DNA of 46,483 nucleotides from Dimargaris cristalligena (Eukaryota), in assembly GCA_003614675.1 (NCBI GenBank), contig ML002294.1, positions 1 to 46,483 on the forward strand, written 5' to 3'. How positions within the stretch are numbered: position 1 is the first letter of the stretch; each line of letters opens with the position of its first letter. Below, one piece after another: positions 22,699 to 44,811 of this stretch. The translations under genes and the position numbers were made by a program. Under the pieces are notes generated by a model. It worked only from the letters and a program-made list of their open reading frames with translations. It was not told where the DNA came from and made no database searches.

Positions 22699-23489
22699 CC
22701 CTTTGGGAAAAACCTATGCAAAATATAGGGAAAAGTAAAGCTGTACCGTTACCAGTATTTCTTAAACTTGCACTGCGTTACCTACAGTTCGCCCAATATA
22801 CGTGACAATTTCCTATCGAGTAACCTGGCTTAATTCAGTCATTCTAATACCCATGTGGTCCCATTTTCTTTACACACCACCCCTTAGCAATCCCATTGAA
22901 ATGTACCTTTTTATACTTGCACTCTCTCACATCTATACGTCTATTAAAAATAACTAATTAATTGGCTAAATTGGAATATTTATGTGGCAATGGCAGTGCC
23001 CTTTAGCCCCCCAATTAATTTTGGTGGGAGTATACATGGCTTTGTTTATACTATTATTTTATACCACCTACCACTTCTCAAATAAGACGGGTGGGAATCA
23101 GCAAGGCTATATATACGACTTAGAATGAAGCGTAAGCCGAAAAATAGGTTAAACCAGACGGGTTTTTAGTTTTACACTATATCTGAAGCTGTTTTTATTT
23201 GCCGGTAGACTAAGTGCCGCCAGGGAGATTTTCACCAATAACGTTATTAAGCGACTCAAACTAGAACGGGTAATCACTGGTAGGGGCGGGGTAATGGATA
23301 ACATAGTATAAATCCTATTGTATATTTGTGGACGGTGAATGTTATCAGAGAAATAACCATTCCAAATACCAAATAGATTAGAAAGCAGAGATGTGCATCC
23401 AATGGCTGCGTTATTGGCTAGGAATTCAACAGGCATAACTTTACAATAAATAATACCGCAAGGATATTGATACACACATGTTCAGCTGG

Positions 23490-25640
23490 TTATTTCACAT
23501 GAAGACCAGGCAAGCCCACCGCTATTGCCAAAACAGATAGCGGCAATCTAATGGATTAGAAATTATAGTATAAAGACCCATATGTGTCGCTAAATTATAT
23601 TTAAATCAATAAGTTAAAAAAAAACGCCAACAGATTGCGTGGAATATTTGTAGTTACCAACATACAATTTAACAAGACTGATCGAAAGGCCAATCGACCT
23701 AGAAAATACCCCAAATACCTCTCTGACCGTCATGCACAGTCAAACTTAATATATTAGATGGTGTAGCCGTTTCGGCTAGCTAATCCAATATTTTCTATAG
23801 ATATCAAACAAAGAATTTTGTATACAGCCCCTTATTTTTCCGTAACGCCATGATGGCATTATCATAAATACGGAAAAATCCGGACCAAGGGCTTTATTAC
23901 CAGCCTTTAGCCGGTGCTGAAATTTAAGTATGGTTATTTCTAGTAACTTAACATTTTTCACCTAAATGACATTTCCAATATATAAAATGACTTCCTGCTG
24001 TCGAAATCAGTTATGTATCACTAAAAGATATTGCACTTATAATTTATTAAAATTACATTTAACCTACTCTTTAGCAGGCACCACGGAGATCAGGATCACT
24101 CGGTGGCTATAATATTGCCGGTCCGGTCTGCCCCGGTGAGGGTGGACTTCCGGTCGAATGCTGGGTAATCCCTCTAAATAAAGTGAGGATTCCCAGTTGC
24201 ATCCTGGTTGGGGTGACTGAAAGGTATAGTTTCCTGCATTGTTGCAGGGGGAGACCTGTATGTCTTTAGATAGGCAGCCGGTGAAAGGATGAGAATAGGC
24301 CCTAGTGAAGCCATAGAAAAAGGGGGAGATGGAATAGGACACATGTATGTAAAAAAGCTGGATGAATAAAGGTTCATAACGATGGGGTGAAAGGTAGAAC
24401 TCATAATCGTTTGATGTGATTTTTTAAGGAGGGCCTCCACCAAGGTATTTATACCCGATACAACTAATGGGCAGGGCAACTGGGCGTAGTATAGGACAAC
24501 CCACTAGCCTTTCCAATGATGTCCATTTGATAGGTCTATTCCATACCCCCATTAGGGGAACAATATGCTTATTCATGATTTGTACTTGGAATGGGATAAG
24601 GGCTGGTTACCATACCAGAGTGTCCCCTTTGTCGCCTATTCAACGAGAATCGTGAATGGCTACTACCATTGTATATGCGTTATAATGGCCGCTTAGCTAG
24701 GGTTCGACACAATACACCGGGGAAGTCTGAATCCACACCTTGCGAAATCAGCTCTCGGGTTGGGGCCAGAACCAATGCTCTTGTCCGGAGGCTTCTACGA
24801 TATTTGACGTTTATAATGGCAATACAGCAAAACACCCAGTAATTCTGGATTTGTTTTTATATAAAGGTGATCAGACCCGCTGTGACGGTTAGGCCCTGCT
24901 AAATGGCTTACTTATGGATAATACGACCCTGATGGTCATTTAAATGCACTAACAATGGGCCCAGCGAGTCCCTGTCAGATTGGTTTATCTATTAATTCGA
25001 TAGTCCCGGTCCAGGAATGGTACAGCCAGCACCAATTACCATGGCCTTAATAGGAAGGACAAAGCCTACCAACGTTTAGTGATGTACCAAAGCCATAGAT
25101 GGATCGGTAATCCCTGGCAACCATGCAAATACAAATGTAATAGGTACTATACTTTCAATTGTTAGTATTGTGACTCGTCATCCGTATGTATCGAGCAAGG
25201 GAATGGTACATTCGAATGGTGCGTAGTACAGTAGCTGTGCCTTACATCTATGAATTTAATGGTATGTTAGTGTTCCAGAGAAATCTTCGCACTAGCATTG
25301 TTCCCGTGACCCTTCATAGTAACTATGTCGCTGCCTGGCCACCGTTATATGTTGGTAGGCTTCTTTGGTTGGGCAGAAGGCTTCCCCCCTATGATATTCC
25401 ACAACTTGGCTAACTTGTTAGACAGTGGAGTATTTACGTTAACACTGGTTGAATAATGGACAGGTCTTCTTCAGAAAATGATTGGCATTTAGTGGTGTAA
25501 CATGACATGAAAATTAAGGCCGTTTTGGACTAATCGGGTCTAAATCCCCAGGCTGGCGTTGTTAGCGACCGTAACCCCGAAAGACATTCCAGACCATGAC
25601 TGCCTCTAACATCCATTCACCTACTAACCTATTAGACTGG
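23490..25640. repeat. Copy 1 of a diverged ~2 kb dispersed repeat unit
   Basis: Colinear with about 26930-28560 and 39590-42350. Shared anchors include aaacaaagaatttt, gcattatcataa, ttattaaaattacatttaacctac, ttattcatgatttgtact, taagggctggttaccatacca and ctaacatc.attcacctacta. Boundaries are approximate. Confidence 0.85.
24096..24314 (-). pseudogene. 72-codon microprotein ORF, copy 1, with a premature TAG at codon 47
   Basis: MASLGPILILSPAAYLKTYRSPPATMQETIPFSHPNQDATGNPHFI*RDYPAFDRKSTLTGADRTGNIIATE*. TAG at 24174-24176 aligns with CAG in copy 3 and CTG in copy 2. Same 219-nt span as the other two copies. Confidence 0.5.
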
Positions 25641-26929
25641 TATAATTATATGTCATGAATATAATTGTAGAACCCTTTTAATAACATATATCCAACGTAT
25701 GTGGTGGTATGGTATACCAATTACTATTCCATGGATGTCAGAACTCCCTTTACATCCATCAATGACGGTATATTCTTATATCACTCTTTTGACCTGGGAC
25801 CTAAAAATCCTACTGTCTGTGATCGAAAAAAAACTACTACTTAGTCACCTTTCAAACAGTCGAATTAAATATTGTATGGGATTGCGACCTCGACCCATGT
25901 ATTATTTCATTGGTGCCTCCTCTTCTATTTGTACACACTGTTTTTTACTGTCCTTATTAGGATTCGGCACCGGGAACAGGCAGCTGTACTTTATGGTCCT
26001 GTGTACCAAACAATTAACCTTTGCACTGCAATGCCATTCATATTAAATTATTAGTAAAAAACCACGGCCATAACGAACTAAAATGGCAGGCAGTCTATGT
26101 TACGCAATCGACCCACCCCAAAACTACGGACCAAGGCAATTGTTATGACTCCTCCCCATGGTACCCGCAATTGTGTTCGACAGATACATCACTACGTAGA
26201 CCAGATATTCTATTAATTGGGGGCTACTTGTAGTCAAGGGGTGATGTAAATATCTAATAGGAAACACCTAAATACGAAGTACTAACTGACCGTAGGTGTT
26301 TAGATGGAGGTGTAGATATTATACCATGTCTGACAACACCCGGGGGAGTCAATCGGCGCTAATATGTATATGGGCCTGTTATATCAGAAGGGTTCTATCA
26401 AAGCAGTATATAACGATAGAGCGTTTAGTAATCCGATTAGGTTATCCAGCACACGCTAGTCTCCGGAGCCACTGGATATGGCTGTAACTATCCAAAACCA
26501 GGACTGCTTTCAGCACCCTTTGTTGCGGAGTATCTTGGGTATTATTGCCAAATCTACTACTCGCTGTATACTAAGCATTTATTAATATACGTAGGCTCTT
26601 GGTTTATTACCATAGAAATTGTCGCAAGTAACAAATTTAATATGATATTTATCCGTGAATAATAGCTTATGTTGAAAGTTACTAGATAAATTACTGATAG
26701 TTGAATTTCCAAAGTACTACTTATATATAGTAAATAGTTGTTCTTAACTATAAATAAAAGAATATCGCAAATCCAAAATCATTATTATGTAATCAATGGC
26801 TTTGTACAAGGATCAAGTAACGAGTTAGGTGTTAATAAGATATCTAGTGAAATCTTTATATATTTCAATACATAGTATAACTATATATTGTGATTATGTA
26901 TTACCGTCAAGTCTGTAGGAAATGCTCAG

Positions 26930-28560
26930 TAAGTGGATGCGTGGGGGTTTTTCGGGAATGAACACCTGGGTTCGTTGTGCAAGAAAAAACCAACATTCAA
27001 TCCCGACAGAACCAATAATACCATCCTGGATAGCATATATAATTGACCCAGTATTTTAACGGTATTTATAACCACTTAAGCCCACTAAGTCAGTAGTTTC
27101 CATCGAAATATACAAAGGACTCCATCCACAACCCTTACTTTATTCATACCACCACGGTGACATTATCATAACTAAGGAAATATCCAAATCAATTACTTCA
27201 TCACTGGTCTTTTTCCTATGACCGATTCTAATCATACCTATGGCTATAAACTTAACATTTATTTTCAAAACGACAACCACTGTATAAAAGTTCCATCCCG
27301 CTGTCGAATTCAATTATGTAGCGAAAAAAAATATTTTATTAAAAATACATTTAACCTACACTTCGGCAGGCACCACCGAGGTTTAGATCACTCGGTGGCT
27401 GTATTTTCACCACCCATGTCCGTCTCAAAGAGGGGATAGTTAGGTTTGTGGACGGGGTAATCCTTCAGGATGAAGGAGTAATACCCCGATGCACCCTGGT
27501 TGGGGCGACTGAAAGAAGTTGCTAACTGCATCAGTAAAGGTGACGACATGGGTGTCCTTAAATGGACGGCCAACAGAAGGGTGGTGCAAGGCCTTAATCT
27601 GGCCATAGAGAAGAGCGGAGGGGGGAGGCGGAGAGTGAAGGGGAAATAAGAGGTTTTATGCCGATAGATAAAATGTGGGATAGAGAATGGTGAATGGATA
27701 TTCCAGCATGATTTTACTTTTGGGGGAGTGATTCAACCAGCCATTTATACTGCAATCCATTGACACCGGAATCGTCTTGGTGTGGTATACAGTGACCAAC
27801 CAAACCTTAATAGGATGCTTTATTAATATGGGTGAACTTCAACCCAACTGTATAAGATTTTACACAATATGTGTATGGGATAATATGTGGGAGAATAATT
27901 TTTGACCAGTAATATTTACCTTGTCAAATGGATTATTCGTTATACAGCCTGGATGAACTTCTGCCATATGGATATTTCATTGATTTACTGGAGGGACAAT
28001 ATGTTTATTCATGATTTGTACTGGAAATGGGATAAGGGCTGGTTACCATACCAGAGTGTCCCCTTTGTCGCCTATTCAATGGATTCATGAATGACTGCTA
28101 TCATTGCATATGCATTATAATGGCTGCTTAGCTATGGTTGGGCCCAATAAACGGGCGAAATCTGAAGCCACGTCCTGTATCATCTATTCTTGGGTTAGGG
28201 CCATGGCCAGAACTCCTGACCGGGGGCTGTTACGAAATTTGGCGTTTACGACGACAATGCAGCAAAACACTCAAGATTGCTAGGCCTACTTTTACACGGA
28301 GTTGATCTGGTCGGCAGTGACAGCTAGACCCTGATAAAGAACTGGCGGTGTGGGTTATTTGGGGAAGTGGCGCCCCGCCAGTCACCACAGTGTACGACCA
28401 ACTGGTCCAGCCAAACCCTGCCAGAGTGGCTTACCTACCGAACAAACGGCTATAGACTAACCTTATAGTCGAAGCTGGAGGATTCTGTGTCACTGGGAAG
28501 AGCAGCACCACCTAGCCTTCGGTAGTGAATTATAACCATAGACACACCCGGGATCGCTGA
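26930..28560. repeat. Copy 2 (most diverged) of the ~2 kb repeat unit
   Basis: Shares the anchors cattatcataa (about 27160), aatacatttaacctac (about 27345), the near-identical block 27996-28079 and gcaaaacac (about 28262) with copies 1 and 3, in the same orientation. Boundaries are approximate. Confidence 0.8.
27388..27606 (-). CDS. Hypothetical 72-aa microprotein, copy 2 (intact)
   Basis: MARLRPCTTLLLAVHLRTPMSSPLLMQLATSFSRPNQGASGYYSFILKDYPVHKPNYPLFETDMGGENTATE*. TATAAAT about 143 nt upstream of the ATG, AATAAA about 48 nt after the stop, and gap-free alignment to copies 1 and 3. Confidence 0.5.
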   Translation of the reverse strand: MARLRPCTTLLLAVHLRTPMSSPLLMQLATSFSRPNQGASGYYSFILKDYPVHKPNYPLFETDMGGENTATE

Positions 28561-29049
28561 TACCCCCCCCAAAGTGTAATTGGTATATATCGAGCAGCCT
28601 TATTATGGTTGGACATTACTAGTCACTACTATAGTGTGCTAATACAGTATGATATAAAACCAACCCAATTACACACGATCTTATGATAGACATATGGGAA
28701 TAAAACCAGTCAATTTTTGTTTTGTCTCCTAAATACTCGCTTATTCAACCCGGGCTTTTATTATACACCCAGAACGAGTTTCACCCACATTTGGATTCAT
28801 TGCTATAGTTGAGTGCCTACTTTGAATAGTAGTAATGATCAATTACCGAGTGCTCTGAAGTCATGGCTGATCTTTTATTATCTACATGTATAGTAAATAT
28901 CATTCGAAGTTGAATTGTAGCATCTCTATATATCTTTTCACTAGCACCTGCTAATAAGTACAAAGTGCATTCGGCTAATCAGCACTTGACCAACTGGCCG
29001 TAGTGTGGGTTGGTTAAACGAGGAAACCGAGTCGTGGGGTCTAGCCTAC

Positions 29050-31499
29050 CTACGAGCGCCACACAAAAAAGTAATGGGTCTTACCGACTCGTAATACACA
29101 GAGTCGCTCCTGAAGCAAATCCGTCTTGAGGTCAAAGGGTCGGTTGCGGATATCCGCCTGACGCGCCTGGTTCAAGTAGAATCCGCCTGATTTGGCAAGT
29201 CGAATGGCTTCCGACTTCGACTTACAGGCACCAACCCTTACCGCTAGGTCAGGTAGGGTCATGGACTGCAACTCCGCGTCAGAAAGGGCAAAGAATCGCC
29301 CCCGATCTCCGACGAAGGCGTCATGGACATCTTGAACGTTAAGAGTGGCCAAATCAAGGGGCTCGCCAAAGAGTAGTCGTGTGGCAATTTGGGCGTTACG
29401 TAAGCCAGTAGCTACAAGCAAGAAAGAACGTGAATTCGCCATTGGTTGGTTAGTTGCTAGTTCAACTTGCTCTCTAATAACGTTGGGTACCTATTTAAAT
29501 AACTGTCTAAAGAACCCACCCATGTACCGCAAGTGTGGTGGATTAGCAGTCAAATACCTATACATGTTTTATGATACTAAAGTTGATACTTACCCCCATG
29601 AATAAGTTGAGTTACTTGGTTGGCCAGTATGGTTTGGGCATGGCGCAGTTCCGGATTGGCCTGTTTGATTTAATATACCGAAATGTACGTGGTTTAATAA
29701 AAAGGTTCAGACTCATGGGTTATTTAATCAGTATATATCATAAGGTAGAAGGAGATTAAGACCATTTGAAATAGAAGAAACCGAGGGCGTTACTCGACAA
29801 GTACTGGATTTATAATTCAGATAAAGATACACTTACATTGTGTGTGGTGATGATTCGATCAATTTCAGCTAGAGGGATAAACGTGAATAGCCGCAAGTAC
29901 TTGGCGACCTCGCTATCTGGAGTTCGAACAAAAAACTACGATAGATCAGCCGCCGGAAAAATAATTGAAAATATATAAGCCCGATCCAGTCAAGGTGTTA
30001 GTGAGCTAGCAGAAATATTAGACCATGGCTGTGTCTGGGACTATAACATCGTATTAAGATGGTACAGTCCCACTGAGACGAAGTGTGAAAGCAATTCCCT
30101 CGAAAACACTCGGGATCTGGTCAATAAGAATCATGCGGTTATAAATGTACATTGGCAGCGCCCTGATCATATTAAGCAACTAACCTGGTAAAAATCGTAA
30201 ACTGTGGTCATTTGGGAATCCAACCAAACGGCATTACCGGCGGATTTGCCGAATTTCTCTCCAGTGGGGGTGGTTAGCAACGGGAACGTAATCCCGTAAG
30301 CTTCCCGACCGGATGTATCCGGCCCAATCGGTTCCGACTTCGGATCGGGGCTTGGTTCGACTAGTGGCCCTCGCTCTTTTAATTTTTCAACTAGTCCGCT
30401 AACCGCCTTGGGATCCATTTTGTGAATAAGCTCGATCCCAGCGGTGATATTGCCCCATTGGTCACTTCCTCCAATCTATAAATAGGAGGGATGCAATAAT
30501 AGGGAAGGTGTGGTGTTATAATGGGTATATATTATTGTAGCTCAAGGGGTCTTGAGTCCAAATCCGGGCATTTGAAACGGTACTTCAACAATGTAGACTA
30601 TGGACAGCCACCACTTACCTGGATGAAGCAGTTTCGGAAATTGTACAGATACCAAAAGTCCATCGCCTGGAGTAGCTGGTAGGAAAACTCCGTAAAGCTA
30701 AGGCCCTGATCGGAGTTGATCCGGGCTTTGACGCTTTCCCGCATCATCATGGGTCCGATCCGCATATATTTACCCACGCTAGACAAAAAGTCGATGATGC
30801 TTAACGGGGCGGTCCAATCGAGGTTGTTCGTCACGGTGATGTCGGGAAGGCTAGACCGGTCCGCGCCTAGGGCCTTGCGGCTATTATCGAAAATGGCATT
30901 CAGCTGTTTGCTGATGGTGGAAACGTTGTTCCGTAATTGATCAGGGTCCAGGGCCGTTCGCTCCGACGACCGGCCGCTAGGATCACCAATGAACCCAGTG
31001 GCCCCACCAACCTAAATTCGATATTAAACCATACATAAGGTGGTAAATAAAACATGTGCAATGTTTCTGGGTTAGGACTAGTCACTGGCCATCGGGTGGG
31101 CCTAAATGCTCGGAACTGACAGGTTTAATTTAACCGGGGGTGTACGATCAAACTTACCAGAGCCGTGGTCCGATGCCCATTGCGCTGAAAGTGCAAAAGC
31201 CCCATGATGGCCAATAAATTACCGACATGCAAACTAGACGCGGTCGGGTCGATCCCCAAATAGACTGATCCGGGTTTATCAAGGCTTAACCGGGCATCCA
31301 ATGGACCGTTGGTTAGTGCGGCAATAAAGCCCCGCTCGGAAAGCGAGCGAAGGATCGGGCTGCCGTAGGTGGGTGGATCGGAGGGTGGGACGGAAGAGTG
31401 GCAGAAGTGGGTGGTTCGCAGAGTACGGACCGGCCCGAGGGAGACTGTCCAGCGCGATCGGGCTAGAGATCCAGGAACGGCGTGAATTCGACCAAGCAT
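29050..31499 (-). CDS. MSY1: Mitochondrial (bacterial-type) tyrosyl-tRNA synthetase, about 517 aa, 6 exons
   Basis: Exons 31499-31158, 31011-30619, 30475-30185, 29935-29837, 29660-29594 and 29411-29050 join in frame. [15 protein letters not shown] (HIGH-like), [55 protein letters not shown] (KMSKS-like) and a C-terminal S4-like [17 protein letters not shown]...LRVGK. The Arg/Ser-rich N-terminus resembles a presequence. Confidence 0.95.
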
Positions 31500-33081
31500 G
31501 ACGTTGTCGTATAGAGTTTAGGTGAGCGAAACTACGGTTAATGGCACAAGATAAGTGAAATGAACCAAGGTCAGGAGGAGCTATCAGTCCTACTAGGGCT
31601 GCCAGGCATGAATCCTGCAGTCTAAGCTAAATGGGGTAAGTGATGGTCCATGTAGCTTGGGACTACATTTGCTCTAAATGGGCCGCTGGTGGGACCTTCA
31701 CTTTTTACGCGATTTTACCGGACTACTAAAGAAGCCAGGACCATGCAGGTTAGCTTGGGGCACTGTACCTAATGCTACTGAATGATGATGCAGCATGGGG
31801 GATATACCAACATCCAGAGAAAACGCAAAGTACTTAATGGTTAATAATAGATCTGCAATTAAGCAGAATAGCATGGACCCAGCGACTCCTGGCCCTTATT
31901 AACCAGAAATACCCTAGTGATGCTGCCTAGTAAAATTTAATAATGGAGTGGTCGAGTCCACCCCCTAATCAGTCCCAATCAGGCCATAGTTCACCCATTC
32001 AAAGACCAAGGAGCTCAGTACTTAAACCTGTGCTTTAAATCAAGTAGACATGCCGACCATTTCAAAATAAATGCTTTTCAGGGGGGTGAATGTGTGGCCA
32101 CATGGATGGGCCAAGAGGGCACAATTGGGTTAGAGGAAATCCACGACTGGTTAAAGGAATACCTTCCTCTCTTGGGTGAATGGAGTAGAGGCAAACAGGA
32201 TCAGCCAATTTGGAGATTAAACTGGTAGGTGGCCGGTAGATGGGGTTTAATAGTCGCCAAAAGTGTGGGTCGTATTCCAAAGGGCTGGGCCATAGGTCTT
32301 CCCCCGATTACAAATCCGCCGTTGGGCCAGGCTATAATAATCCACGACCGTTTATAATGACTTCATAGTAAGAAAGTATGGCTCGGCGGCCGACGCCATT
32401 TTGTGTGATTTTAGGCCAGCAGCATTAACCAACTGAACTTTTATGCACGAGTACATGCACATTTATATAGCCAGATGGCGTGTAGAATGTATGCGGCGTT
32501 TACCTCTCGTGTCACACAGACCAATAGCCTGGGGCGAAGTACCCTTGCCCTGGACCCTTTTCTTCCCTACTTTATTTCCTTTTGCCAACCAATTCCCTCC
32601 AGGCCACTGTTTCGAAAGCACCCGTCATTTCCCTTGGTCTATTGTCCCCACAGTTGAATTGTTAGTATTCTGAGTGTCGCTTGTAAAAGAACGGCCGTTG
32701 TTATAATTATATTGTTCGGAGCCCTGGTCCTTCGGCCTTACCTGCCACTCTTCCCTGTACCAGAACGTCGATTGATGGGTCCTTGATTAACCCAGCGTCG
32801 CCCGAGTTTCCTTTACTCTCCCCAACCTCTTCGCGAGATCCTGGCTGCTACCGAAAGTCACTTATATTAACTGGCTTGTTCAACCTGCCTCAGGTGTAAC
32901 TCTCTCCCTATTTTTTTTTGTATACCATCCCGTAGTTTTGGCGAACCCCCATTTTCCCGTTCGACTCCGCCACTATTAATATTAACCTGCCATCCCCTCC
33001 CCCATTCTTGGCACTCTAGCATTCTTCCATTCCAATATCACGGCTTTCCGGTTATCCCTTTCCATCACTGTCCGCCACGCC

Positions 33082-34809
33082 ATGGGCGCTGTACTCTCCC
33101 TATTCCGCGGGTCGGGCGACACCGACTACGAACAGGTCCTCGCCGACCTCGACGAAAAAATCCACCGGGCCCAGACCAACCTGGCCGAAATAAAGCTGCG
33201 TGAGAAGAAATGGGTCGTGGTCTTTCTAATCTACTCGATGTTCGGTTACGCCGTCTACGCCATGGTATTTTACGCCTACCTGAATCAGCCCCACGAACCC
33301 TTGCAGACGTGGCTGTATCAGTTCGCCCCCATACCCTTGGGCCCATTGGTCATTTTCTACTCCCGGCGGCTGATCCAGCTGTGGTACCGGCGGCGTCAGG
33401 CCAGCCAGGAAGCCTATATTGTGTCCCTGAAGGAAAAGCAGCGGACCAAAGTGGAGGAGCTGAAGAAGAAGACCGCTTATTATTCGACCCGGAACCTCCT
33501 CGAACGGTACGACGTGACCAACAAGCCGCCCGTTAACCCTGACGCCCAGCGTGCGGCTAAAAACCTGGGCCTGGCGGGTGGTCCGAATGGCCCGGCCGGC
33601 AAACGGCCCCCCATGTCTAGTCCCGCGGCCAACTTGCGTCAACGGCACCCTACCGCCGGACACCCCCTCCCCCCGGCCACTACTCGGCCTAACGGCGGTG
33701 CCCCGGGCGTTCAGCTTCCCCCCACTTCCCCTCGAAATCCTTCTAGTCCGCCCGCCTCAGGCCTTGGTCCCCAGGCTGGTGGTCCCATGAATCGCCCCGT
33801 TAACTCGGTTTCTTTCCCGCCGCGTGGTCCCCCCGGGTCATTTGCCGGCCCCCATCTCCCACCCAACAGCGCCTCCCCCATGTCCCGCCCTTGGTACGAC
33901 AAATTGGTTGATAAGATTGTAGGTGACGAAGGCCCCGAAACCAAATACGCTTTGATCTGCCGGAACTGCTTCGCTCACAATGGCCTGGCCCTACCCGAAG
34001 AAATCCAATCGATCCAATACGTGTGCCCCAAATGCGGGTTTTTCAACGGTAAAAAGGGGGCGCTGCCGCCCGCTTTGCTGGGCCCTAAACGCACCGGTCC
34101 CCGGCATTCGATGGCCGGCCCCATGATGGGTAGCGGACGTCCTCTGTCGCCTCCCAATGTCACCCACAATTCTAATAACGAATCGGCGGTAGATAGCCCG
34201 TCGGCCCAGAATAAGTCCGACCATCTGCGTGCGGAATACCTGCGGCGCCAAACGATGCCTGCCCATCTTCTCAAGAAATCGGCCCTTACATCCGCCATAT
34301 CACCCGATAGTGACGACCACAGCGATGCTGCTTCGCATAGTGGCTCGGATTCGGATCGCTCGGTCTCGGATCAAAGCCAAAGTGGGCCCAACCCCCAGTC
34401 GACCCGTCGCCGTACCCATACCGTGTCTGAGCACACCGATACCGATGATGATGATGTGGAATACGCCTCGATGAACAATGGCCTTCGAATCGGCAATATC
34501 ACCACCCGTCGCTCGTCCGGTGCCACACCTAACCCCCATGTGGTTAAAAAGGAATCCCTGTCTTCTCCGACCGGTTCCTTGGGAGAGCACCCAAGTGATA
34601 CCGAAGGCCCCAGCTTGAAGGAGAAGGCGGATGGCTGTGACCACCCAGCTCCCGAGAGTGACCGTGCTGTTCCGATCAACGAAACAACCGGTAACCAATC
34701 GCTGCCTGTTGAGGGCGAGGTTTCCCATACTGACCATACCAGTGATAACGTATCGCAAACTTCATCTCGCCGTCAACGGACTCCCCGGAAACGGCGCAGC
34801 AAAAAATAA
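33082..34809 (+). CDS. LNP1: Lunapark (ER three-way junction protein), 575 aa, single exon
   Basis: MG start (myristoylation-type), coiled coil, two TM helices, LKEKQRTKVEELKKKTAYYSTRNLLERYD, WYDKLVDKIVGDE and the zinc finger KYALICRNCFAHNGLA...YVCPKCGFFN. Confidence 0.93.
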   Translation: MGAVLSLFRGSGDTDYEQVLADLDEKIHRAQTNLAEIKLREKKWVVVFLIYSMFGYAVYAMVFYAYLNQPHEPLQTWLYQFAPIPLGPLVIFYSRRLIQLWYRRRQASQEAYIVSLKEKQRTKVEELKKKTAYYSTRNLLERYDVTNKPPVNPDAQRAAKNLGLAGGPNGPAGKRPPMSSPAANLRQRHPTAGHPLPPATTRPNGGAPGVQLPPTSPRNPSSPPASGLGPQAGGPMNRPVNSVSFPPRGPPGSFAGPHLPPNSASPMSRPWYDKLVDKIVGDEGPETKYALICRNCFAHNGLALPEEIQSIQYVCPKCGFFNGKKGALPPALLGPKRTGPRHSMAGPMMGSGRPLSPPNVTHNSNNESAVDSPSAQNKSDHLRAEYLRRQTMPAHLLKKSALTSAISPDSDDHSDAASHSGSDSDRSVSDQSQSGPNPQSTRRRTHTVSEHTDTDDDDVEYASMNNGLRIGNITTRRSSGATPNPHVVKKESLSSPTGSLGEHPSDTEGPSLKEKADGCDHPAPESDRAVPINETTGNQSLPVEGEVSHTDHTSDNVSQTSSRRQRTPRKRRSKK

Positions 34810-35804
34810 TAATACAACCTGAGTTGTTTAGCGTGTAAGCTACCTAATAGCTACTTCCTCCGTTTTGTTAACATTTGGCAATGTGCGCCCACCCAGCTTT
34901 TCCATCTACTGTGCTAGAAGGGGGAATCGGATAAGCAATTATTATTAAAATTATACACCTAACCCTTTATTTTGGAGTTCCCCATTTTCCGCGAGGCTGT
35001 TTCGGTTGGGGAGGCTTTACCAATTTTATTGGCCTTTCGTTCTGAGAATCTTAAACACACGGATCCTCCGTTTTGTTTATTACCTCATGGCTATAACATG
35101 ACCTATCTCGCCCCTCTCTCCATTTATCTCATTTTGGCATTTGGTATTTTACTTCATCACTGTGCCACCACATTATATAGTTTGAAAAGAGTTCAACCCA
35201 CTATATTTTTGCACTCTTTTTGTTGTTGTTGGATTTCCTTGCACTCTGCGACCTCGTTTTACCATCGCTTCTCTGTCATCGGCTTATCGCCATTTTCTTT
35301 ATACCTCTTCACTACCTGGGTCGCTCGCCTCACATGTAATCCATTCAGATATTTAAGAATCGATCCCAATCTCGGTTTAATAATAAACATATACATATAT
35401 TCAAGATGGAGAATGGCCGCGTAAGTCTAGTAAGTTAGATCAGCTCCTATTTAACCAGCACTATATCACTAAGGAGTAAACGATAAATTGGTGTCAAAAT
35501 AAATATAAAATAGCTAGATTCGATTGTCCAAAAGCAATGTATGCAGATTTTATTGACTCTAGATCGGGGATATATTCGGTAGTTCGTGAAAGGAAAGAAG
35601 CGGGGTGTCCAGCTAATATAACACATGATAAATTAAGATACGCGAGTAGATTTTCAACATGGCATTGGCAAATAATCTATATTTAAGAACATTGCTATCA
35701 GCACCCCCCGGATATAACCATATACATATATAGGTAACGTAGTGACAGTATTCGGGAACCTTACTGAAGAATTGTCCTCCCCCCCGTCCCCTGACAAACC
35801 CACC

Positions 35805-38619
35805 TTAGTCAATCTCGGTGAGTTTGCCAATCACGCTTTGCTTTAACCCAATGAACGCCAACTCACTCAAATGCTCCAGCGGACCTTCGGCATGGACGTA
35901 ATCCCGGATTAATTCGGCCCGTTTCTTGCCAATCCCCTTAAGGCCCATGATGACCCGTAGGTCCGCCTGGTTCAGGATCGCTAGCACATCGGTGGTACTA
36001 CGGTGCGTTTTCCGCGGGGCTGGGTCTGAGGGGGGTGGTGAGTGATCAAGGTCGTCATGGTGGTGGGGGTGGCTATCACCATCCTGTGGGAGTAGTTGGG
36101 GGGCGTGGGTGATATTGAGGAATGGGGGCCGGGGGTCTTCGTCCATGCTCATGGGGGTTAGATCCATAAGGGATCGGCCCACGGTGGGGCCATCATTCTC
36201 AGCCGGCCCCTTGGCGCCAGGGGCAGTGGTAGCGGTAGCGACCGTTGTACCGAGTGGTGGAGTCCTGGACGCGTTGGAATGTTGAACGGATGTCCGGTCC
36301 TTACCGCTATTACCCCTTGGACGGCCGGGTTTGGTCAAAATATTAGGTCGTGTGGTAGCGAAAAGGGAGGTTGAGGTAGTGGTGGGGACAGGTTTTGCCG
36401 TAGTCGTAGAAGTGGTAGAGGCAGTGGCAGCGACAGCGGCCGATCGTCCTGCGGGTTCGGCGGCAGCCATGAGTCGATGGAGGAGAGGAATATCAGCTGA
36501 ACTCGTCCGATTTGGTTTCGCGGGATCCAAAGAGCTACGCTGGGCCGGTGGTATTGGGGGAGATAAGACGACCGCATTGGTGACCGTGGTACAGTGTGAA
36601 GTCAATGGCGTATCCGGAATCAGAGCCTCGTTCGAACCAGTTAATAGCCCGTGTTTTTTCTTCATTTTTTGGATATATTTAAGTAATGTATTCCGGTCGG
36701 GCACAAACTCGACGGCCCGTTCGAAATGGCTCAGCGCCTCATCGATTTTACCCTGTTTTTCGAGGAGTTTGCCCCGTTTCACGTAGGCCCGCGCATTCTT
36801 GTGTTTAGTCATGGGACTGAGGAGGTCGAGTATCCCTTCGCTACTAGTCTGACTGGCCAGCCGTTTTTCCAGAAGGGCCAGGCGCTCCTGAATGGTCGGG
36901 AGGTCGGAAGACGCCATGCTTTGGGCATCACCAACCATCGTATCGGAGGCTGTCGGATTAGCCCGGGACGGCGCTGGAGTCGGCTGGAGAACCCGCTGGC
37001 GTTTCAGTTCTTTGACTTTCTTTTCCATGATTTGTTCGACCCGAGACTCGAGTTCGGCTTCGAAGTCAGCCAAGTTACGACCCATTAAGTACGGCTGCGC
37101 CGCTGAAGCCCCCCGGGCGATCCCGCCGGCACTAATCCGGGTGGGGAGAGGACGGTCACCGGATAATCGGTGCGCTCGGGCGGGTAGAGCGCCTGGTTTA
37201 GCCGCTTTGTTCCGGGCGATTAAGCCGGGCGGGGCACCATCCGAATGATGTCGGGGTCGTTTACGAACCGGATCGGAGTTTTCATCGCCCCGTTGGGCCC
37301 GACCCAGCCCCACCGCTCCCCGTTTCAACTCCACCGCCCGGTCCGGGTTGTTAGTAGCGGGTTGGGCGAATTCGTGAACCTGCGTCTTGTTGACAATTTG
37401 TTTCGATTTGGTTGCGAAATTTAACGTATTGTAAGTATCCACAAAAAATTTCTGGCCGGGGGCGACATTAACGATCATCATACCCAAACTCCGGCCGCCC
37501 AGGGACGACTGGAGAATGCGAGTCATTTTAGAGTCCCGGTACGGAATACGATGGGCGCCGGAATTAAGGGCCTCCACCACCTGGCCTAGCACGAACAACG
37601 ACTTGTTGATGGCGCCGCTCTCGGCCATGCGGTCTTTGCCGTTTTCGGTCCGCCGGTTGTCTTCGGAACCGGCGAGATCAATCAGATGCACGCGGCCGCG
37701 GAGAGTAGTGTTCTTCAGGGGATCATCCCAGTGGATTTGGACGGTCAGGACCGCGTGGGAACGACTGGAGGCTACGTTTAGTTTGGTACTGGCGGTGGAT
37801 CGGTTCTTGCAAGCGGTGGCGAAGTATTTTTGGAATTCGGCGTAGGAGGAGATGGACTGTTCAGTAAGGTTGGGAACAAATATGTTGTGGTTGGCATCTT
37901 CCCGGATAGGCAGACCCGAGGACTAGAGGCAGGGAAAGGGCATTAGGTGGGAGATGAGCGACATGAGTGAGACGGAGACGATGGCCAAAGGAAGGGATAG
38001 ACTTAGACTAGGGGATATGCCAGATTAATTGCGCTTGAATGAACCTACCAGGATGACAAGATATACAAATGCCCACACTTACATTTTGGGTCTCCCGGGG
38101 GACTAATAGATCGAACACGGCTTCTTTGTAAATCTCAAAGTACGTGAAACTGACCACGTACTTGAGCTTGTTCCTCATCTTACGGTTGGCGAACAGGTAC
38201 TCAATGGTCCGGGGTATCAGCCCCGGATTCGAATTATCGCCCTGGATGGTATGCGTTTTGCCCGCCCCGGTCACTCCGTAACAAAAGATGGTGGCATCCA
38301 GGCCCTGGTAAGCCTCGTCCACCAACGGCCGAACGTTCCTTTGGAAAATATCGCATTGGTTGGCGGTGGCGGCGTAGCAGGCATCGAAATGGTACATGAA
38401 CACTTCGTCGGGGTTGCGCTGGTTGACGATCTTGATGGTCCGGTCGGCGGTGACAATACAGTCATCGGCCTGTTCCTGCGGGAGGAAGGGCCGCACCCGG
38501 CAGAGAATCTTGATTTTGTGGTGGTTGGCCGAACGGGGGGAGGAGTCGGCACCGGCTTTTTCGGAACCAGTGGATTCGCGGGGGCGCGGCCGCTTTTTAG
38601 ACCCATTAGGAAGGGACAT
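35805..38619 (-). CDS. Kinesin-10 / Kid (KIF22)-like chromokinesin with C-terminal helix-hairpin-helix, about 884 aa, 2 exons
   Basis: Exons 38619-38083 and 37922-35805. Motor motifs CRVRPF, FCYGVTGAGKTHT, FEIYKE..FDLL, LPIREDA, SSRSHA, LIDLAGSEDNRRTENGKDRMAESGAINKSLFVLGQVVEALN, IPYRDSKMTRILQ.SLGG; C-terminal HhH LNQADLRVIMGLKGIGKKRAELI. The DLAGSEDNRRT motif plus HhH is characteristic of KIF22. Confidence 0.9.
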
Positions 38620-39559
38620 GGCTAAGGATGTGGGTGGGTTGAGGTAAAAGGGAATCTCCACCAATGAGGGATTATATACAGTGGCGAATGGTCCCTAAGG
38701 GTAATAAGTAGTAAGAAACCAGAAGAAAAAATAGAAAGTTAATAATGTAGCCAAGACGAAGGAGTGTGAGGAAGGTAATCGATAGGAAAGACGGCGTCCA
38801 TGAATGTTGGTGAATGCGAGGACTGGTAGTTGGAAAAAGAAATAGTGTATTTATATAGATATAGATATATTTATCGGACTGCACGCGTTCAGGGGGCATT
38901 AAGGGAGCGGAGTACTAAGGGGAGTCGACGGAGTGTGAAATGATCCAGCTCTCATTTTTGGGGGGTTTTCTAAGGGGGAGGAGGGGACCGCAATTTGTCA
39001 CCAGTATTACTCGATATGAAATGAACTAGGTTTAAGCTTACACTAATTTAACGGTGTTGCCGTCGGTTATACGAGGTGCCAACGACGAACAAGTCATCAA
39101 TACACCCTCCACGACTGGATGTGTGGTCCAACCAATTTGGTTTGATTTGGATGAAAATCAGCACAACTGCGTATAGCTTGGAAAGAAATGGGAATAATAC
39201 TAATGTCGGTGGGATTTTTTTGGACCAGTCAAGTCAGTTTAATCGCAACTGGATTTTTCAGTATACAGCAGATCGGAACCTATCCCACGTTGGAAGGCAA
39301 AGGTCCATCACTGATGAAAATTATACGTTAACATGATCAGGCAACATCTATCCGAAAAAGTAGCCCCCAATAAGAGGTGGACTATAACCAACGGTTTATA
39401 TGCCCAGCCATATACCAGTTGCTAGTGGAAAATATTAGATAGTAAATTCTGCCAATTATATTTTCAGGATACATTAGAAATCAGAGAGGTACATCCACAG
39501 GTCGCACTATTTACAATAGATTCATTAGCCAAACTATTTCAATAAAGAATGAAACGGGG

Positions 39560-39581
39560 TATATATATATATATATATATA
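39560..39581. repeat. (TA)11 microsatellite at the left edge of repeat copy 3
   Basis: Perfect dinucleotide run read directly. Confidence 0.95.
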
Positions 39582-40202
39582 CATTTACAATCAGCTATAT
39601 CACAGCAATACTAAGTAAGCACACGGCCTTTGGCAAATTAGATAGCGGGAATCCCAATCAATTGGAATACCAGCTATAAATAGAGCTATACGTGTTGCTA
39701 ATCTAAAATTAAATGAAGTCGGAAAGAAAACACTGATAAGCTAATGTGTGGACTATTTGCAGTTTCCGGCATCTAATTCATTAAAACTGTCTGAAGGTGC
39801 AATCAATCTAGACAATATAAAAAATATATCTAGCTGGCATACCGACTAAGTCTGGGTATTTCAGATGTTAGTATAACCGTTTCATCAAGCCAGTCCAGTA
39901 TTTCTTATTGAAACCAAACAAAGAATTTTATCCAAACCCCCCACTTTATCCATATCGCCACAGCGGCATTATCATAAAAGTTGAAAAACCCTAACCAACA
40001 GCTTTATCGCTGGTCTTTAACCAAAGTCAATTTCGAGCCATTTTTATACCTACCAACTTAGAATTTATCTCCTAAACGACATTTCCGTTTCATAAAATGA
40101 TTTCCCATCGAAATCAATTAGGAATCATTAAACGATATTGCACTGATAATTTATTAAAATTACATTTAACCTACTCTTTAGCAGGCACCACGGAGATTTG
40201 GG

Positions 40203-40421
40203 TCACTCAGTGGCTGTAATATTGCCAGTCTGGCCCGCTCCGGTGAGGGTGGTCTTCCGGTAAAATGCTGGGTAATTCCTCTGAATAAAGGGAGGATTCC
40301 CAGTTGCACCCTGGCTGGGGTAACTATATTGTTTAAGGTCCTGCATTGTTTTAGGGGACGGCCTGTATTCATTAATACAGGCTGTCAAATTATTTAGGGA
40401 AATGGCCCTAGGTTTGGCCAT
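40203..40421 (-). CDS. Hypothetical 72-aa microprotein, copy 3 (intact ORF)
   Basis: MAKPRAISLNNLTACINEYRPSPKTMQDLKQYSYPSQGATGNPPFIQRNYPAFYRKTTLTGAGQTGNITATE*. 39/72 identical to copy 1 by hand count. The TATA position is altered to TATATTAG; AATAAA at 40150-40155. Confidence 0.45.
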   Translation of the reverse strand: MAKPRAISLNNLTACINEYRPSPKTMQDLKQYSYPSQGATGNPPFIQRNYPAFYRKTTLTGAGQTGNITATE

Positions 40422-41072
40422 TTGAATAGTGAGTAAGCACACTAAATCAATGTAAGGCAGATATAGAAAAAATACATTGAAAGTTTGAAGTAGTGTGGGG
40501 TCGCATTGAACTCATAATCATTGTATGAAATTTTTTAAGGAGGGCCTCCATCAAGGCTAATATACCCAATACAGCCAATGGGTAAGTCAGCCATGTGGGG
40601 CAGAAGATGCCCCATCAAACCTCCCAATGCTGTCCATTTGATAGACCTATTCCATACTGCCACTAGGGGAACAATATGTTTATTCATGATTTGTACTCGG
40701 AATATAATAAGGGCTGGTTACCATACCAAGGTGCTCCCTTTGTTGCCTCTTCAATGCAATTCATGAATGACTACTGCTATTATATATGCATTATAATGGC
40801 TGCTTAGCTATAGTTTGACACAATACACTGGGGAAGTCTGAAGCCACACCTTGCAGCATCCATTCTTGGTTTAGGGCCAGGACCAACTCTTGTCTGGAGG
40901 CTTCTACAAAATCTAATATCCACAATGATAATACAGAAAAATATGCCCTGTAAATCTGGGTCTATTTTCACATGAGGGTGAGATCAGACCTGCTGTGATG
41001 GGTAGGCCTTGCTAAATGACTTGTTTATGGATAATACAACCCTAATGGTCATTTAAATACACTAATAATGGG

Positions 41073-41660
41073 TGTTGGCCCTCCTAATCCTACCTAAATC
41101 TAGACTTAATAATTGACCATCCCTATTTAGCTTTATCACACCATATTAACCCTCCCATAGTCACCCCTGGTACTATAGGACCACCATCTATTATATAACC
41201 CTCCTCCAACTGGGCCCCCAACACTTCACGCAAAACACTTAGCCAGCTAATCCAAATGACTCTTCCAGTTCCTATAAGAGTCTTCCAGGTACCTAGCTAT
41301 CCAGCCAGACTCTTTGCCTACCTATACCTAGTTTTAGTAGTATTCCCCTTAGGACTTCCTGTTGAAGTTGTCCCTGTACATATATAACTGGGCCCCACTG
41401 GGACCAGTTGGTTTCCTTAGCTTATTCTTACCCCCTGTAGTTTACCCTAATAAACTCTATATACACTTATCCCTCATACTAACTAGTAAATGTGCCCACT
41501 GTATGTCCCTTACATAAACTGATTACTTAAAGCCTTTATTAGTTAGTACTGTGCCCACCCTAATACTAGTAGCCCTCTTGGCTGAGTCTAAGCCCCACCT
41601 ACTATAAGAAGCCTATCCTCGGGACTCTTGATAGACTAAGAGTAGTTAACCCAGATAATA
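41073..41660 (+). mobile_element. Solo LTR of an LTR retrotransposon (588 bp) with 5-bp TSD ATGGG
   Basis: Absent from the homologous site in copy 1 (actaacaATGGGcccagcgag at about 24956). Flanked by ATGGG at 41068-41072 and 41661-41665. Begins TGTTG and ends TAATA (CAACA after two C->T changes). Internal TATATAA at about 41381 and AATAAA at about 41449. A second copy starts at 46114. Orientation is inferred from the TATA/polyA order. Confidence 0.85.
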
Positions 41661-43146
41661 ATGGGCCAGTGAATCCTTATCCTATTGGTTTACCTAGCAA
41701 TCCAATAGTTGTAGTTAGGTCATGGTATAGCAAACACCACTTGCTGTAGCCCTATTAAGAAGGGCAAAGCTTCTTGACCTATGGTGATGCACTATAATCA
41801 TAGATGAACTAAGAGTCCCTGATAACTATAATAGTACAAGAGGGATAAATATTATACTTTCAACTGCTAGTGTTATAATTTGGCACCTATTAGTATCAGA
41901 CAAGGGAATAGTAAATCTGAATGGTGAATAGTACAATAGCTGTGCCATGCTTTCATGAATTTCAAATTATGCTAGTATTCTGAGACAGTCTTACTGGCAT
42001 TATTAGCATGTCTTGCCAGAATAGTGCTACATCTTCTGGATTGTAGGTAAGTAATGGTGATATTATTAAGTCAGATAGGTGCCATCCCACAGTTATTATT
42101 CAATTGCTTTGTTGGTACCTTCTCCCCCACTGGGATGCCTACAAGAAAACTTTTAGAGTAACAGGCGGGCCTTTACCAGATAATAGCCAAGATCCAAAAG
42201 TAAGATGGTGCATGTTGAGATGAAAGCCAATATGTAATAGTCTGGGCTAACTTCTCGGGCTGTTACTGTTAGCAACCATAATCCCAAAGGACATTCCCAG
42301 TTATGGGTGCAGCTAACATCTATTCACCTACTAGGCTTTTAGACAACTGGCCTAGTTCTACACCCAATTGCCATCATTGTCATTTTATAATTGCCTATAC
42401 CACATTTGGAATGGAAGTCATGCATAATGACTACTTCAAGACTAGCTAGCTAGACCCTCAATCACTGGTCATATTATAGCATAAAATACACACTTACTTA
42501 AGCAGATGTAATAATGGGGTGGGGGTAGTGCTAGCCGCCTACTGAATCTACCTATTAATAGTGAGCATGTGTTGTGATATGGTAAACCTAGTGCTGTTCC
42601 ATGAGGGTCAGAACTCGCCATTCTTTCACCAATACCTGCCTATTCTTAAATCAAACCTCTGAGCGGGAGTCTACTATCTTTCTGGTCAGAAATAGGCTCT
42701 TATTGATTCTTCTTTCAAACTGTTGAATAACAAAACATTACATAGTGGTGATCACAAGCCAATACCTATATTATTGGAGGCCTCCCACCTCTTGGTCTAG
42801 TTGAGTACGATTTGGCCCGACTCTAAGAATTTACATAATATGCACACGGAGAAGTAGGCAGGAGACTAACTATAAGCCAGTAGTGCTTACCTCTTTCATC
42901 GTTTTTTTGTCGTACAGTCTAGTTGAACCTCTCCTATATGGTTTTACCTATGCTCGTGTAGTGCTCTAATCTATGATGGCTGAGGATAGTATGGTAGAAC
43001 GAATGAAAAATGTCACCAGGAGTACTTTATTGGTATATGAAATATGTTACCATTTAGTTAAATCATAAATAAGTTGGTCGTGGGCTAGCAGCAATATAAA
43101 AGATTTAGCCGAAAGCCTATATTATTATGTGTCATCAGTTTATTGT

Positions 43147-43924
43147 TTAAGCCAACTCAATTAGCCGCCTAAGCCCCAGTAGCCACTTGCCCTCGGTTTC
43201 GACATAGTGTTGCATAAGGGGGAGGAACAGTCTGCTGGCTTCGTCGTTCTTACCAGCCTCCAGCGCTAATTTGATGGAATAATAACAATAATAAACACAG
43301 CACGCATTAGTAAGGGGTATATAATAACGAGTGGGTACCATTTAAGTACGAACGAAATGCACGAACTGAGCCATAAAAAGATGGGGTGGTTGAGGCCTTA
43401 GACCTAACAACAACCCCGATTCTGGGGGAGGGGAAGGGTTATGATTGGGAAAGTGAGGGGGGAATTCGTTTAGAGACGGGTGGGGGGAACTTACCTGTTA
43501 CAATGTTAGTTAGCTCTAACAGAACCGGCTGGGCGACTTGGTCTTCCTTCAAACGGGCGAAAAGCAGGTCCATTTTCTTTGTGGCGTCCTCAAGCTTACG
43601 TTTATCCATACCCTGCAGCTCTTTGGCCCGGAGGGTTTGGAGCAGCCGCTCGATACTGGCCTGAGCATCCTCTTTGGCAATGGGGGTCACTTCTTCAGGC
43701 TCAAGGGCTGCTGCTGCGGCCTTAGCATTACCCTTGGCCTTAGTCTCAGCGGTGGTTGGGGGCGAGTCTTCGTTGGTGGTGGTTTTCTTGGGGTCTTTGG
43801 GGGGAGCTCCGGCTTTGGGCGGCTGGGGCTTGAAAATGGCCTTGGGGGGATCGTTCCAATGGCCCTTGGCGGCGTGATGATCACCACGGAAGTCGGTGTA
43901 TTTCGGTAAGTCGGTGACGGTCAT
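43147..43924 (-). CDS. SRA1 (steroid receptor RNA activator protein)/Sec31-C-terminal-like protein, about 182 aa, 2 exons
   Basis: Exons 43924-43495 and 43265-43147 join in frame (G|CG). N-terminal GHWNDPP motif and a C-terminal helical domain (KRKLEDATKKMDLLFARL...GKWLLGLRRLIELA) match the SRA1/Sec31 family as I recall it. Confidence 0.8.
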
Positions 43925-44811
43925 GCTGAAAATAAAGAGGGGGACGTAACGAAATGCAACAATCAGGTAAAACTAGCCGCTAAGGTAGTGGGCCTAACCA
44001 ATGGGAAACAAAAGCGTACAAGGGGTGTGAGGGAAAGAATAAAAACTATAAATAGAGACGTAAAAAAGGTTTGCAGTGGACAAGCTGAGTTATAATATAA
44101 GCAGTTTGGTGGAAAAGTTATTAAGACAACTAGGTCTGAAGGTATAGAAAATTATTGGAGGGAAAGGGAGGGAGGGAGGCGAGGCGACCGAAACCTTTAG
44201 ATGTCTCAGACCAGGTCGCGCTGCACCTGCTCTTTATTCACTTTAATTAATAGTGGTCGCCTTTTGGTCAGGGACATGGCGTGGGCCCCGCCGTCAAGGC
44301 GTGCGGGCGAAGCAAGAGCAAACGGCGTCCAAATTAAGAGCCAACGTGAATCGGCGAATGTTTAGAGTCTTGAAGCAGTAGGGATGTGCAGTAAGTTTGC
44401 TGAGTTCTGTGAATTCACAATATGCCCTTCGCCAATGCAAAATATCAGCAGGCATTTGTTGACAAATATGCTTATATTGATTGACGACCTGGCCGCATTG
44501 GAACATCCCGTTTGCCATAAAGCGGGAGTCTGTTATTGAACCCAACATGGAAACCCTCTCCTAACAGCTGCAACCTCGGCCCTAATTGTCATTCAAGCAC
44601 CATTTATTCTCCTGAAATGATGGATCGGCTAGGGTGATTAGGAGGGGCACTGATTTTATACTAGATGTTCGACACACTTGACGATACCGAGACCCCCTAC
44701 TTCCCTCTCTGGTGGAGGGGGATTCCTGTCATATCGTCCATCGCACTTTATTCAGTAAGGATATTATACAGTTAGTTAGGTAAACTATTCATCTAAAGCC
44801 ACGAGAATTAA

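Follow-up and report, generated by a model that had tools for sequence, protein, structure and literature searches.

A microprotein gene family of Dimargaris cristalligena and the MITE-bounded vehicle that may have spread it

Pack-MULEs are non-autonomous eukaryotic elements with terminal inverted repeats (TIRs) that capture genes. The principle of composite transposition, in which two elements bracket passenger DNA, is described for bacterial composite transposons (PMC9587614), and composite-like DNA transposons named KolobokP are described in 7 phyla of animals (Kojima and Bao 2022, PMC9587614). Sola2-type elements are described as producing a 4-bp AWWT target duplication (PMC3627910) and Sola elements as rare in fungi (PMC5751038), and a silkworm MITE (miniature inverted-repeat transposable element) associated with ATAT was left unclassified where it was described (PMC2997013). 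For Medea, a link between a selfish element and a composite transposon is cited (PMC6953677). Here we analyzed a family of microprotein genes, three copies of which lie in a stretch of 46,483 nucleotides from the fungus D. cristalligena (assembly GCA_003614675.1, contig ML002294.1, positions 1 to 46,483 of the forward strand; the whole stretch is called the window). From comparison of the copies we consider it probable, though far from assured, that the gene was spread by a composite transposon and that selection then acted locus by locus on its open reading frame (ORF), which would encode a precursor- or ligand-like peptide in an mRNA tuned by hairpins.

The gene family and its peptide

The window is contig C87 of a genome assembly of 30.65 Mb in 2220 contigs (other C numbers denote contigs of the same genome), whose organization is eukaryotic, with GC-rich, intron-poor genes and AT-richer blocks between them. 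A previous sequence-only reading of the window had recognized a family of three copies and suggested a search for paralogues. Three is the number present in the window, but genome searches, which gave 19, 59, and 53 matches by protein and 19 and 34 by DNA (all lower bounds), raised the count to at least 58 divergent copies on 52 contigs of this one fungal genome. We gathered 59 regions with their flanks, 58 of which contain the ORF region and 56 a complete copy, the truncated copies of C385 and C524 being left out of the latter. Three frameshifted copies were omitted from the codon analyses, C96 was dropped because the 3′ hairpin alone remains, and C1278 was dropped because the DNA profile did not recover it. 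A 5-kb inverted repeat in C613 was taken as an assembly duplicate and counted once; the ends of this contig (1-5086 and 12071-17156) are inverted copies with 99.3% identity, probably an assembly or amplification artefact. Some close copy pairs may be haplotypes.

The three window ORFs each extend over 219 nt from ATG-GC to GAG-TGA without indels, as had been read from the sequence, and the divergence of about 38% given for copies 1 and 2 was measured as 37.9% (copies 1 and 3, 25.6%; copies 2 and 3, 44.7%). The TATA-like boxes, the AATAAA 48 nt past the stop codon, and the single in-frame TAG of copy 1, at codon 47, were likewise present. In the whole family the ORF encodes 56 to 76 amino acids, with long (72 to 74 amino acids) and short (58 amino acids) forms sharing the frame. 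The stop codon lies in the same column in 55 of the 56 complete copies (TAA in 29, TGA in 20, TAG in 6), the remaining one having TGG. Of the complete copies, 53 have the core in frame, 43 have it free of stops, and 37 keep the whole ORF from ATG to stop intact, leaving 19 broken. In-frame stops occupy 11 of 2693 codon cells (0.4%), compared to 3.7% in the flanks and 1.9 to 5.4% in the other five frames, and about 100 would be expected at the flank rate. The earlier proposal of a birth-and-death family of small peptides is supported by the mixture of intact and broken copies and the strong depletion of stops. A search with upstream DNA only led to an open core in 16 of the 24 copies with an ORF region, compared to 14% expected; this search also showed C775, C203, and C1142 to be interrupted or truncated and two copies to stop at a contig edge.

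The core had a ratio of nonsynonymous to synonymous rates (omega) of 0.71 (middle of the core, 0.51; its first 11 codons, 1.26), whereas the other five frames gave 0.97 to 1.51. By parsimony, omega was 0.66 on terminal and 0.71 on internal branches, and stops arose 10 times on terminal branches (39 expected) and once on internal branches (22 expected). The absence of a third-position excess that had been noted holds among the three window copies (29/30/24, 20/19/17, and 33/34/31), but the excess emerges with more copies: heterozygosity by codon position was 0.39/0.34/0.49 in the larger set, which was matched in 0 of 400 permutations. The significance of these coding tests is overstated by the relatedness of the copies. 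The alternatives deduced earlier, diversifying selection or noncoding sequence, were not supported, as the core is under weak purifying selection and only codons 28 to 32 change at or above the neutral rate (codons 28, 29, 31, and 32 at 1.2 to 1.5 times that rate). Indels that copies have in common are divisible by three in length within the ORF, unlike those past the stop. The ORF is accompanied by a pyrimidine-rich leader and an AT-rich 3′ end, by a TATA-like match with at most one mismatch in 53 of the 55 copies with sufficient upstream DNA, and, in 39 of 53 copies, by AATAAA no more than 140 nt downstream. As far as sequence can tell, it is well supported that the ORF is coding and that selection holds it open in most of the at least 58 copies. 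A second ORF starting from a conserved TTAAATG motif past the stop was rejected, since its frames are short and differ between copies, and repeat-induced point mutation was rejected, since C-to-T rates are alike across contexts (0.16 to 0.24).

The peptide has a variable N-terminus followed by Pro23, a hexapeptide (residues 28 to 33), Pro35, and a conserved C-terminal half with the motifs RDY and L-x-x-A-D-x-G. The hexapeptide differs in all 53 copies compared, 42 of which keep both prolines. The 19 residues previously listed as invariant are so in the three window copies, but this is an artefact of a three-copy sample, as only 13 core positions are common to at least 80% of the 53 copies. The peptide is hydrophilic (best 15-residue hydropathy below 1.6 in 34 of 37 intact copies), no obvious signal peptide was seen in the intact copies, and AlphaFold2 with 37 sequences gave no confident fold (predicted local distance difference test score 56, predicted template modeling score 0.18).

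Homologues were found neither among 455 candidates of similar length nor among 8000 longer ones. A profile search of 1.84 billion representatives returned two matches, both to repetitive proteins and judged spurious, and a lone metagenome match (L154) was rejected because it has a short motif in common and none of the DNA features. Pfam gave three weak matches and NCBIfam one, each Pfam match involving a single member; the PDB gave no match of note, the ESM Atlas nothing or scores of at most 0.76, and viral and prokaryotic collections no match by protein or by the 3′ motif. Exact-sequence lookup in a collection of 15 billion proteins showed 10 of 10 intact peptides to be absent, which, with the lack of relatives, suggests that gene callers miss the family. 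By these searches the family is apparently an orphan and apparently unannotated. The genome has three PF02897 peptidase genes (C585, C789, and C2096), two of them oligopeptidase-B-like and one with the strongest Pfam score; none shares a contig with a peptide gene, and among them no dedicated second prolyl oligopeptidase is evident. About 2 kb from the family copy on C68, an ORF (1784-2377 of locus L075) has a signal-peptide-like start and two repeats preceded by KR or RR; we take it to resemble a Kex2-processed repeat peptide precursor.

Terminal units and mode of spread

Each gene lies within a unit of about 2.7 kb, with homology from about -1450 to +1270 around the ORF. Flank homology over about 1.4 kb upstream and 1.0 kb downstream, MITE-like ends, a transposon-like vehicle, hairpins, and the further copies all go beyond the earlier reading. 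The flanks contain stops in all frames, and their divergence of 0.476 is about neutral compared to 0.432 at four-fold sites. A decayed transposase in the flanks was rejected, as stops occur in all six frames, codon periodicity is inconsistent, and a six-frame Pfam search with the flanks of two copies gave nothing at E <0.02. The unit ends resemble a young and abundant 136-bp MITE with at least 43 genome matches (40 scored of 920 candidates), the top copies being 94 to 100% identical. Of 30 young MITEs, 27 are bordered by ATAT on both sides, one by ATGT on both sides, and two show a one-sided change; the 27 and the double ATGT argue for a 4-bp target duplication. The MITE sometimes occurs in head-to-tail tandems with one ATAT in common (loci L102 and L114).

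MITE-like units on the same strand as the gene were found in 15 of 38 5′ zones (2 on the opposite strand) and in 23 of 48 3′ zones (1 opposite), compared to 0 to 5 in seven control zones, and five more 5′ fragments show the same-orientation arrangement. Similarity between copies falls, on average, outside the outer ends, and in the close pairs C1407/C693 and C385/C524 homology stops exactly at the MITE. In a unit tree, from which four 5′ and seven 3′ units were omitted because of poor or interior placement, the 3′ units form a clade of their own with shared deletions absent from the 5′ units, and they track the ORF tree (Mantel r 0.54, p 0.001). Identity between the 5′ and 3′ units of a copy was 0.40 to 0.46 (5 copies), compared to 0.44 between copies. 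As units thus show no greater likeness within a copy than between copies, the mechanism of long terminal repeat (LTR) elements or of terminal-repeat retrotransposons in miniature (TRIMs) is excluded. Units also occur as tandem pairs 2.8 to 5.2 kb apart (C1517, C349, C693, and C87), with one MITE-like unit shared by the pair in C1517. No description of this element was found in the literature searched.

These comparisons make it most likely that the gene spread as cargo of a MITE-bounded, non-autonomous composite transposon. Two direct MITE copies would once have bracketed the gene, which we infer fairly firmly, and a transposase acting in trans would have used the outer ends and moved the block between them. 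Since the outer ends must be one left and one right end, direct orientation of the two MITEs is required. A fresh 5′ end may at times have come from a new MITE insertion, and segmental or tandem duplications on a larger scale would have added copies.

The corresponding features of the window are as follows.

23089..25801, minus strand: whole unit of copy 1, about 2.7 kb; MITE-like ends both heavily decayed, limits approximate
24043..24048, minus strand: AATAAA of copy 1
24056..24107, minus strand: two hairpins of copy 1, one whose loop contains the stop codon and one with a 5-bp stem and a 6-nt loop, and near-invariant TTAAATG
24096..24314, minus strand: ORF of copy 1, 72 codons, broken by TAG at codon 47 (24174-24176)
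24446..24453, minus strand: TATA box of copy 1
26500..28787, minus strand: whole unit of copy 2; 3′ limit approximate, no 3′ MITE-like unit recognized
27335..27340, minus strand: AATAAA of copy 2
27388..27606, minus strand: ORF of copy 2, intact, 72 amino acids
27743..27749, minus strand: TATA box of copy 2
27826..27969, no strand assigned: young 136-bp MITE (itself 27830-27965) upstream of the copy 2 TATA box, ATAT on both sides
28658..28787, minus strand: 5′-terminal MITE-like unit of copy 2, older, 33 bits
39149..39286, minus strand: 3′-terminal MITE-like unit of copy 3, full length, 60 bits
39149..42670, minus strand: whole unit of copy 3 including a later LTR-like insertion; 5′ limit approximate
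40150..40155, minus strand: AATAAA of copy 3
40203..40421, minus strand: ORF of copy 3, intact, 72 amino acids
40557..40564, minus strand: degenerate TATA box of copy 3
41073..41660, no strand assigned: 588-bp solo-LTR-like insertion in the upstream flank of copy 3, 5-bp target duplication; secondary

The ends of the copy 1 unit were set by alignment to other copies and are weak taken alone. Copies 1 and 3 align beyond the ORF (23373-24959 with 39469-41072, at 71%), with more blocks up to 25800 and 42670. The young MITE at 27830-27965 has imperfect TIRs (20 of 32 positions identical). Some 150 nt beyond the 5′ limit of copy 3 lies a further old MITE (42810-42937, 65 bits) in the same orientation, and a stretch related to the 588-bp repeat is found at 46120-46440. 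The CpG observed/expected ratio is 0.07 over 40500-42200, which takes in the degenerate TATA box of copy 3. Around the repeats (773-22698, 29050-38694, and 43439-45798) lie housekeeping-type genes, named by reading their translations, including a TFIIF-like protein, a sorting nexin, a P-type Ca-ATPase, a gamma-tubulin complex protein, a tyrosyl-tRNA synthetase, a kinesin, and a translin-family protein.

RNA structure and the target of selection

Compared to shuffled sequences, the core with the 3′ region folded with a mean z of -3.6 in 24 copies (window copy 2, -5.3), whereas the flanks gave -0.7 and -0.3. Six helices, which we picked from the alignment, were paired in 83% of cells and had a covariation score of 0.187, compared to 0.138 after shuffling; RNAalifold recovered short cores for four of the six. 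Changes from C-G to U-A recur across separate lineages, and a near-invariant hairpin with TTAAATG follows the stop codon. Part of the covariation could be mimicked by self-correction of palindromes. Rfam 15 gave no covariance-model match at gathering score in the window, and for five other loci four weak matches only (E 0.35 to 7.8), all under that score. The synonymous rate was 1.81 in stems and 3.31 at unpaired sites, stem positions past an alignment gap being about one base off in this analysis, and at the unpaired sites of L59, A62, and D63 amino acid change is constrained, whereas synonymous change occurs freely. The lowered rate in stems and the retention of these three residues argue that both the peptide and the RNA (or single-stranded DNA) are constrained.

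Of the 31 copies covered at both ends, none has two ends left that score at least 15 bits, yet 16 have intact ORFs. The MITE ends would thus have decayed while the ORF did not, and an ORF that outlasted its ends argues for selection on loci and not on transposition. The 3′-end score is alike in intact and broken copies. As to the product, we would tentatively place the peptide in the cytosol as a largely disordered chain, whose conserved C-terminal half may bind a single shared partner, for instance a processing enzyme or a target, and whose hexapeptide within the Pro23-Pro35 segment may set the specificity of each copy, as in peptide-precursor or ligand families; this assignment is weak and applies only if the proposed spread and locus-by-locus selection are correct. 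The hairpins may tune translation or stability of the mRNA. The combination of a variable hexapeptide and a conserved C-terminal half follows, by analogy, the logic of peptide-precursor and self-recognition families. Our guess is that a host-selected precursor or ligand ranks first as function and a selfish poison-antidote second.

A number of observations weigh against composite transposition followed by selection at each locus. No MITE match was found at 25 of 48 3′ ends and 23 of 38 5′ ends, and the 5′ units do not track the ORF tree (r 0.07, p 0.26, n=11), three of them grouping with free MITEs. The close pairs C1257/C301, C1941/C738, and C1675/C613 share DNA well past the expected unit ends, so that some copies derive from other duplications or are haplotypes, and as ATAT is a fixed target, target duplications cannot prove transposition of the whole unit. 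The end scores come from a model of free MITEs, most of which score 34 to 53 bits, and this model was built on young MITEs. The 5′-end score is higher in intact copies (p 0.0015), which fits selection via transposition. A transposase linked to the MITE was not found: a genome search with PF13359 gave nothing, and PF20700 gave no genome match in a search whose control matched nowhere either. A lone, broken DUF7869 gene (C1712:2659-3109) lies in a 3.5-kb contig with no MITE match. This gene, apparently intron-containing and a probable transposase relic, stands behind a retrotransposon gag-like fragment; we read it as a putative Sola-like transposase. Regarding the RNA, window copy 3 folds no better than its own shuffles (z -0.74), and double changes at paired positions were no more numerous than in shuffles (164 of 500). 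Many conserved residues fall in stems and the variable hexapeptide in a linker without pairing, so that RNA structure alone accounts for part of the peptide pattern. Finally, the protein search supplied most copies and favors intact ones, and the p-values and the covariation shuffle test are optimistic because the copies are related.

The alternative that survives best, although we consider it unlikely, is a selfish poison-antidote or addiction module moved by the same vehicle, in which a locus would harm nuclei or spores lacking a matching copy, the hexapeptide would let each copy recognize itself, and poison would be split from antidote by the structured mRNA or by the use of two starts in one frame, M1 and M26. 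It would explain selection on dozens of dispersed, divergent copies, about one-third pseudogenes, and the repeat-flanked layout; direct repeats are likewise described as flanks of the wtf meiotic drivers of fission yeasts (PMC9562144). Of 53 copies, 39 have M26, but it sits in a stem and is lost through compensatory changes in intact copies; moreover, the unit contains no second gene, and the hydropathy values of the 34 of 37 intact copies given above leave no hydrophobic helix.

Quite unlikely, in our view, is selection at the level of the transposon, in which transcription and translation of the ORF, rather than mainly the peptide as such, would protect the unit from silencing and let it move in cis, or else the peptide would assist the transposase of the MITE, intact copies being recent movers. 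Stops and frameshifts are strongly avoided though amino acid constraint is weak, the ratio of observed to expected stops is 0.04 on internal and 0.26 on terminal branches, the units retain CpG (observed/expected 0.36 to 0.69, compared to 0.07 around the LTR-like insertion), and the 5′ ends are better in intact copies, all of which it would account for. It is opposed by ends that are far more decayed than those of free MITEs even in intact copies (two good ends in 0 of 31), by the equal 3′-end scores, by constraint on particular residues at unpaired sites, and by the lack of a burst of near-identical units (mean terminal branch 0.21).

Concerning the vehicle only, a retro-type element (TRIM or LTR-like) or gene circles recombining into solo MITEs is very unlikely. 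Direct terminal repeats, the many solo copies, the single unit in common in the C1517 tandem pair, and the failure of the 5′ units to track the ORF tree could be explained in this way, but regeneration of both ends at each insertion is excluded by the unlike units of the same copy (5 copies) and the deletions shared by 3′ units only. In addition, TIRs and a 4-bp target duplication are features of the repeat, the poly(A) signal precedes the 3′ end by about 0.9 kb, and no conserved primer-binding site was seen behind the 5′ repeat in 15 copies inspected by eye, with no tRNA set compared.

Least likely is a family of structured RNA polymerase II noncoding RNAs with the ORF as a by-product of conserved stems, a polymerase II noncoding RNA having already been raised in the sequence-only reading. 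The six hairpins, the amino acid replacements that come with compensatory changes, and the near-invariant hairpin with TTAAATG past the stop agree with it and lend support to its RNA-structure part, but the stop codon lies in an unpaired loop and takes all three possible forms, ORF indels are shared in threes unlike those past the stop, both alternative starts lie in one frame, and Rfam gave no match, which makes a pure noncoding RNA unlikely.

Comparison with known systems

If the gene was indeed carried by paired MITEs and then kept locus by locus, a transposase-free MITE pair plausibly built a gene family of about 60 members in a 30-Mb fungal genome, and the cargo outlived the vehicle; this would be a compact example of the origin of orphan microprotein families. 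Constraint acting on peptide and RNA alike, together with the copy-unique hexapeptide, would point to a specificity system. A bolder and rather doubtful version is a minimal selfish or specificity module consisting of one hairpin-rich mRNA of about 0.4 kb and a disordered peptide of 60 to 70 amino acids with a swappable hexapeptide, which would spread between MITE ends and be kept at each locus as a self-recognizing poison-antidote or as a class of ribosomal peptide precursors new to such fungi.

On the side of the cargo, MSDIN genes, which encode the cyclic-peptide precursors of Amanita, are described as multi-copy short ORFs with a variable segment between conserved prolines, a conserved C-terminal part, and no signal peptide (PMC5159998), an arrangement that the present family recalls. 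Membership in the MSDIN family is ruled out by length (56 to 76 amino acids here, 33 to 37 in MSDIN precursors), by the absence of the MSDIN leader, which in those precursors goes with a follower of 17 amino acids (PMC5159998), and by the lack of a family match. The second prolyl oligopeptidase dedicated to MSDIN precursors, POPB, has no evident counterpart among the three PF02897 genes. The Pro-to-Pro segment here has 12 residues, half of them conserved and partly fixed by a hairpin, and the hairpin-rich coding sequence and the transposon vehicle also set the family apart, in addition to the lack of sequence similarity. In a Pfam search the peptide showed no similarity to wtf. The wtf genes are multi-exon and encode membrane proteins. 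They resemble the present family as a large, dispersed, fast-evolving family flanked by direct repeats, which are 5S rDNA and solo LTRs in their case, and differ from it in that they are described as recombining into pre-existing repeats (PMC9562144), whereas in the present family gene and 3′ repeat are passed on together.

With respect to the vehicle, bacterial composite transposons and Pack-MULEs likewise have passenger DNA bracketed by two small elements and moved through the outer ends, but here the elements are transposase-free MITEs and the cargo is a whole small transcription unit, about 60-fold amplified and still constrained. The target ATAT fits the AWWT of Sola2-type elements (PMC3627910), which makes this superfamily a candidate link only. 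KolobokP, as described by Kojima and Bao (PMC9587614), shares direct terminal repeats that each have their own TIRs, an internal region, abundant solo units, unit-sharing multimers, a 4-bp target duplication, and GG..CC termini, its non-autonomous members measuring 1.7 to 3.3 kb. It differs in its target (TTAA, compared to ATAT here), in the length of the terminal unit (about 450 or 660 bp, compared to 136 bp here), and in having autonomous members with a Kolobok DDD/E transposase plus a His-Me nuclease (PMC9587614), whereas no autonomous member was found here. Furthermore, the two units of a copy are here unlike each other, the cargo is an unrelated microgene under selection, and the host is a fungus. 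By these comparisons of sequence features, the vehicle would be a variation on known composite-type transposition and its cargo an orphan family.

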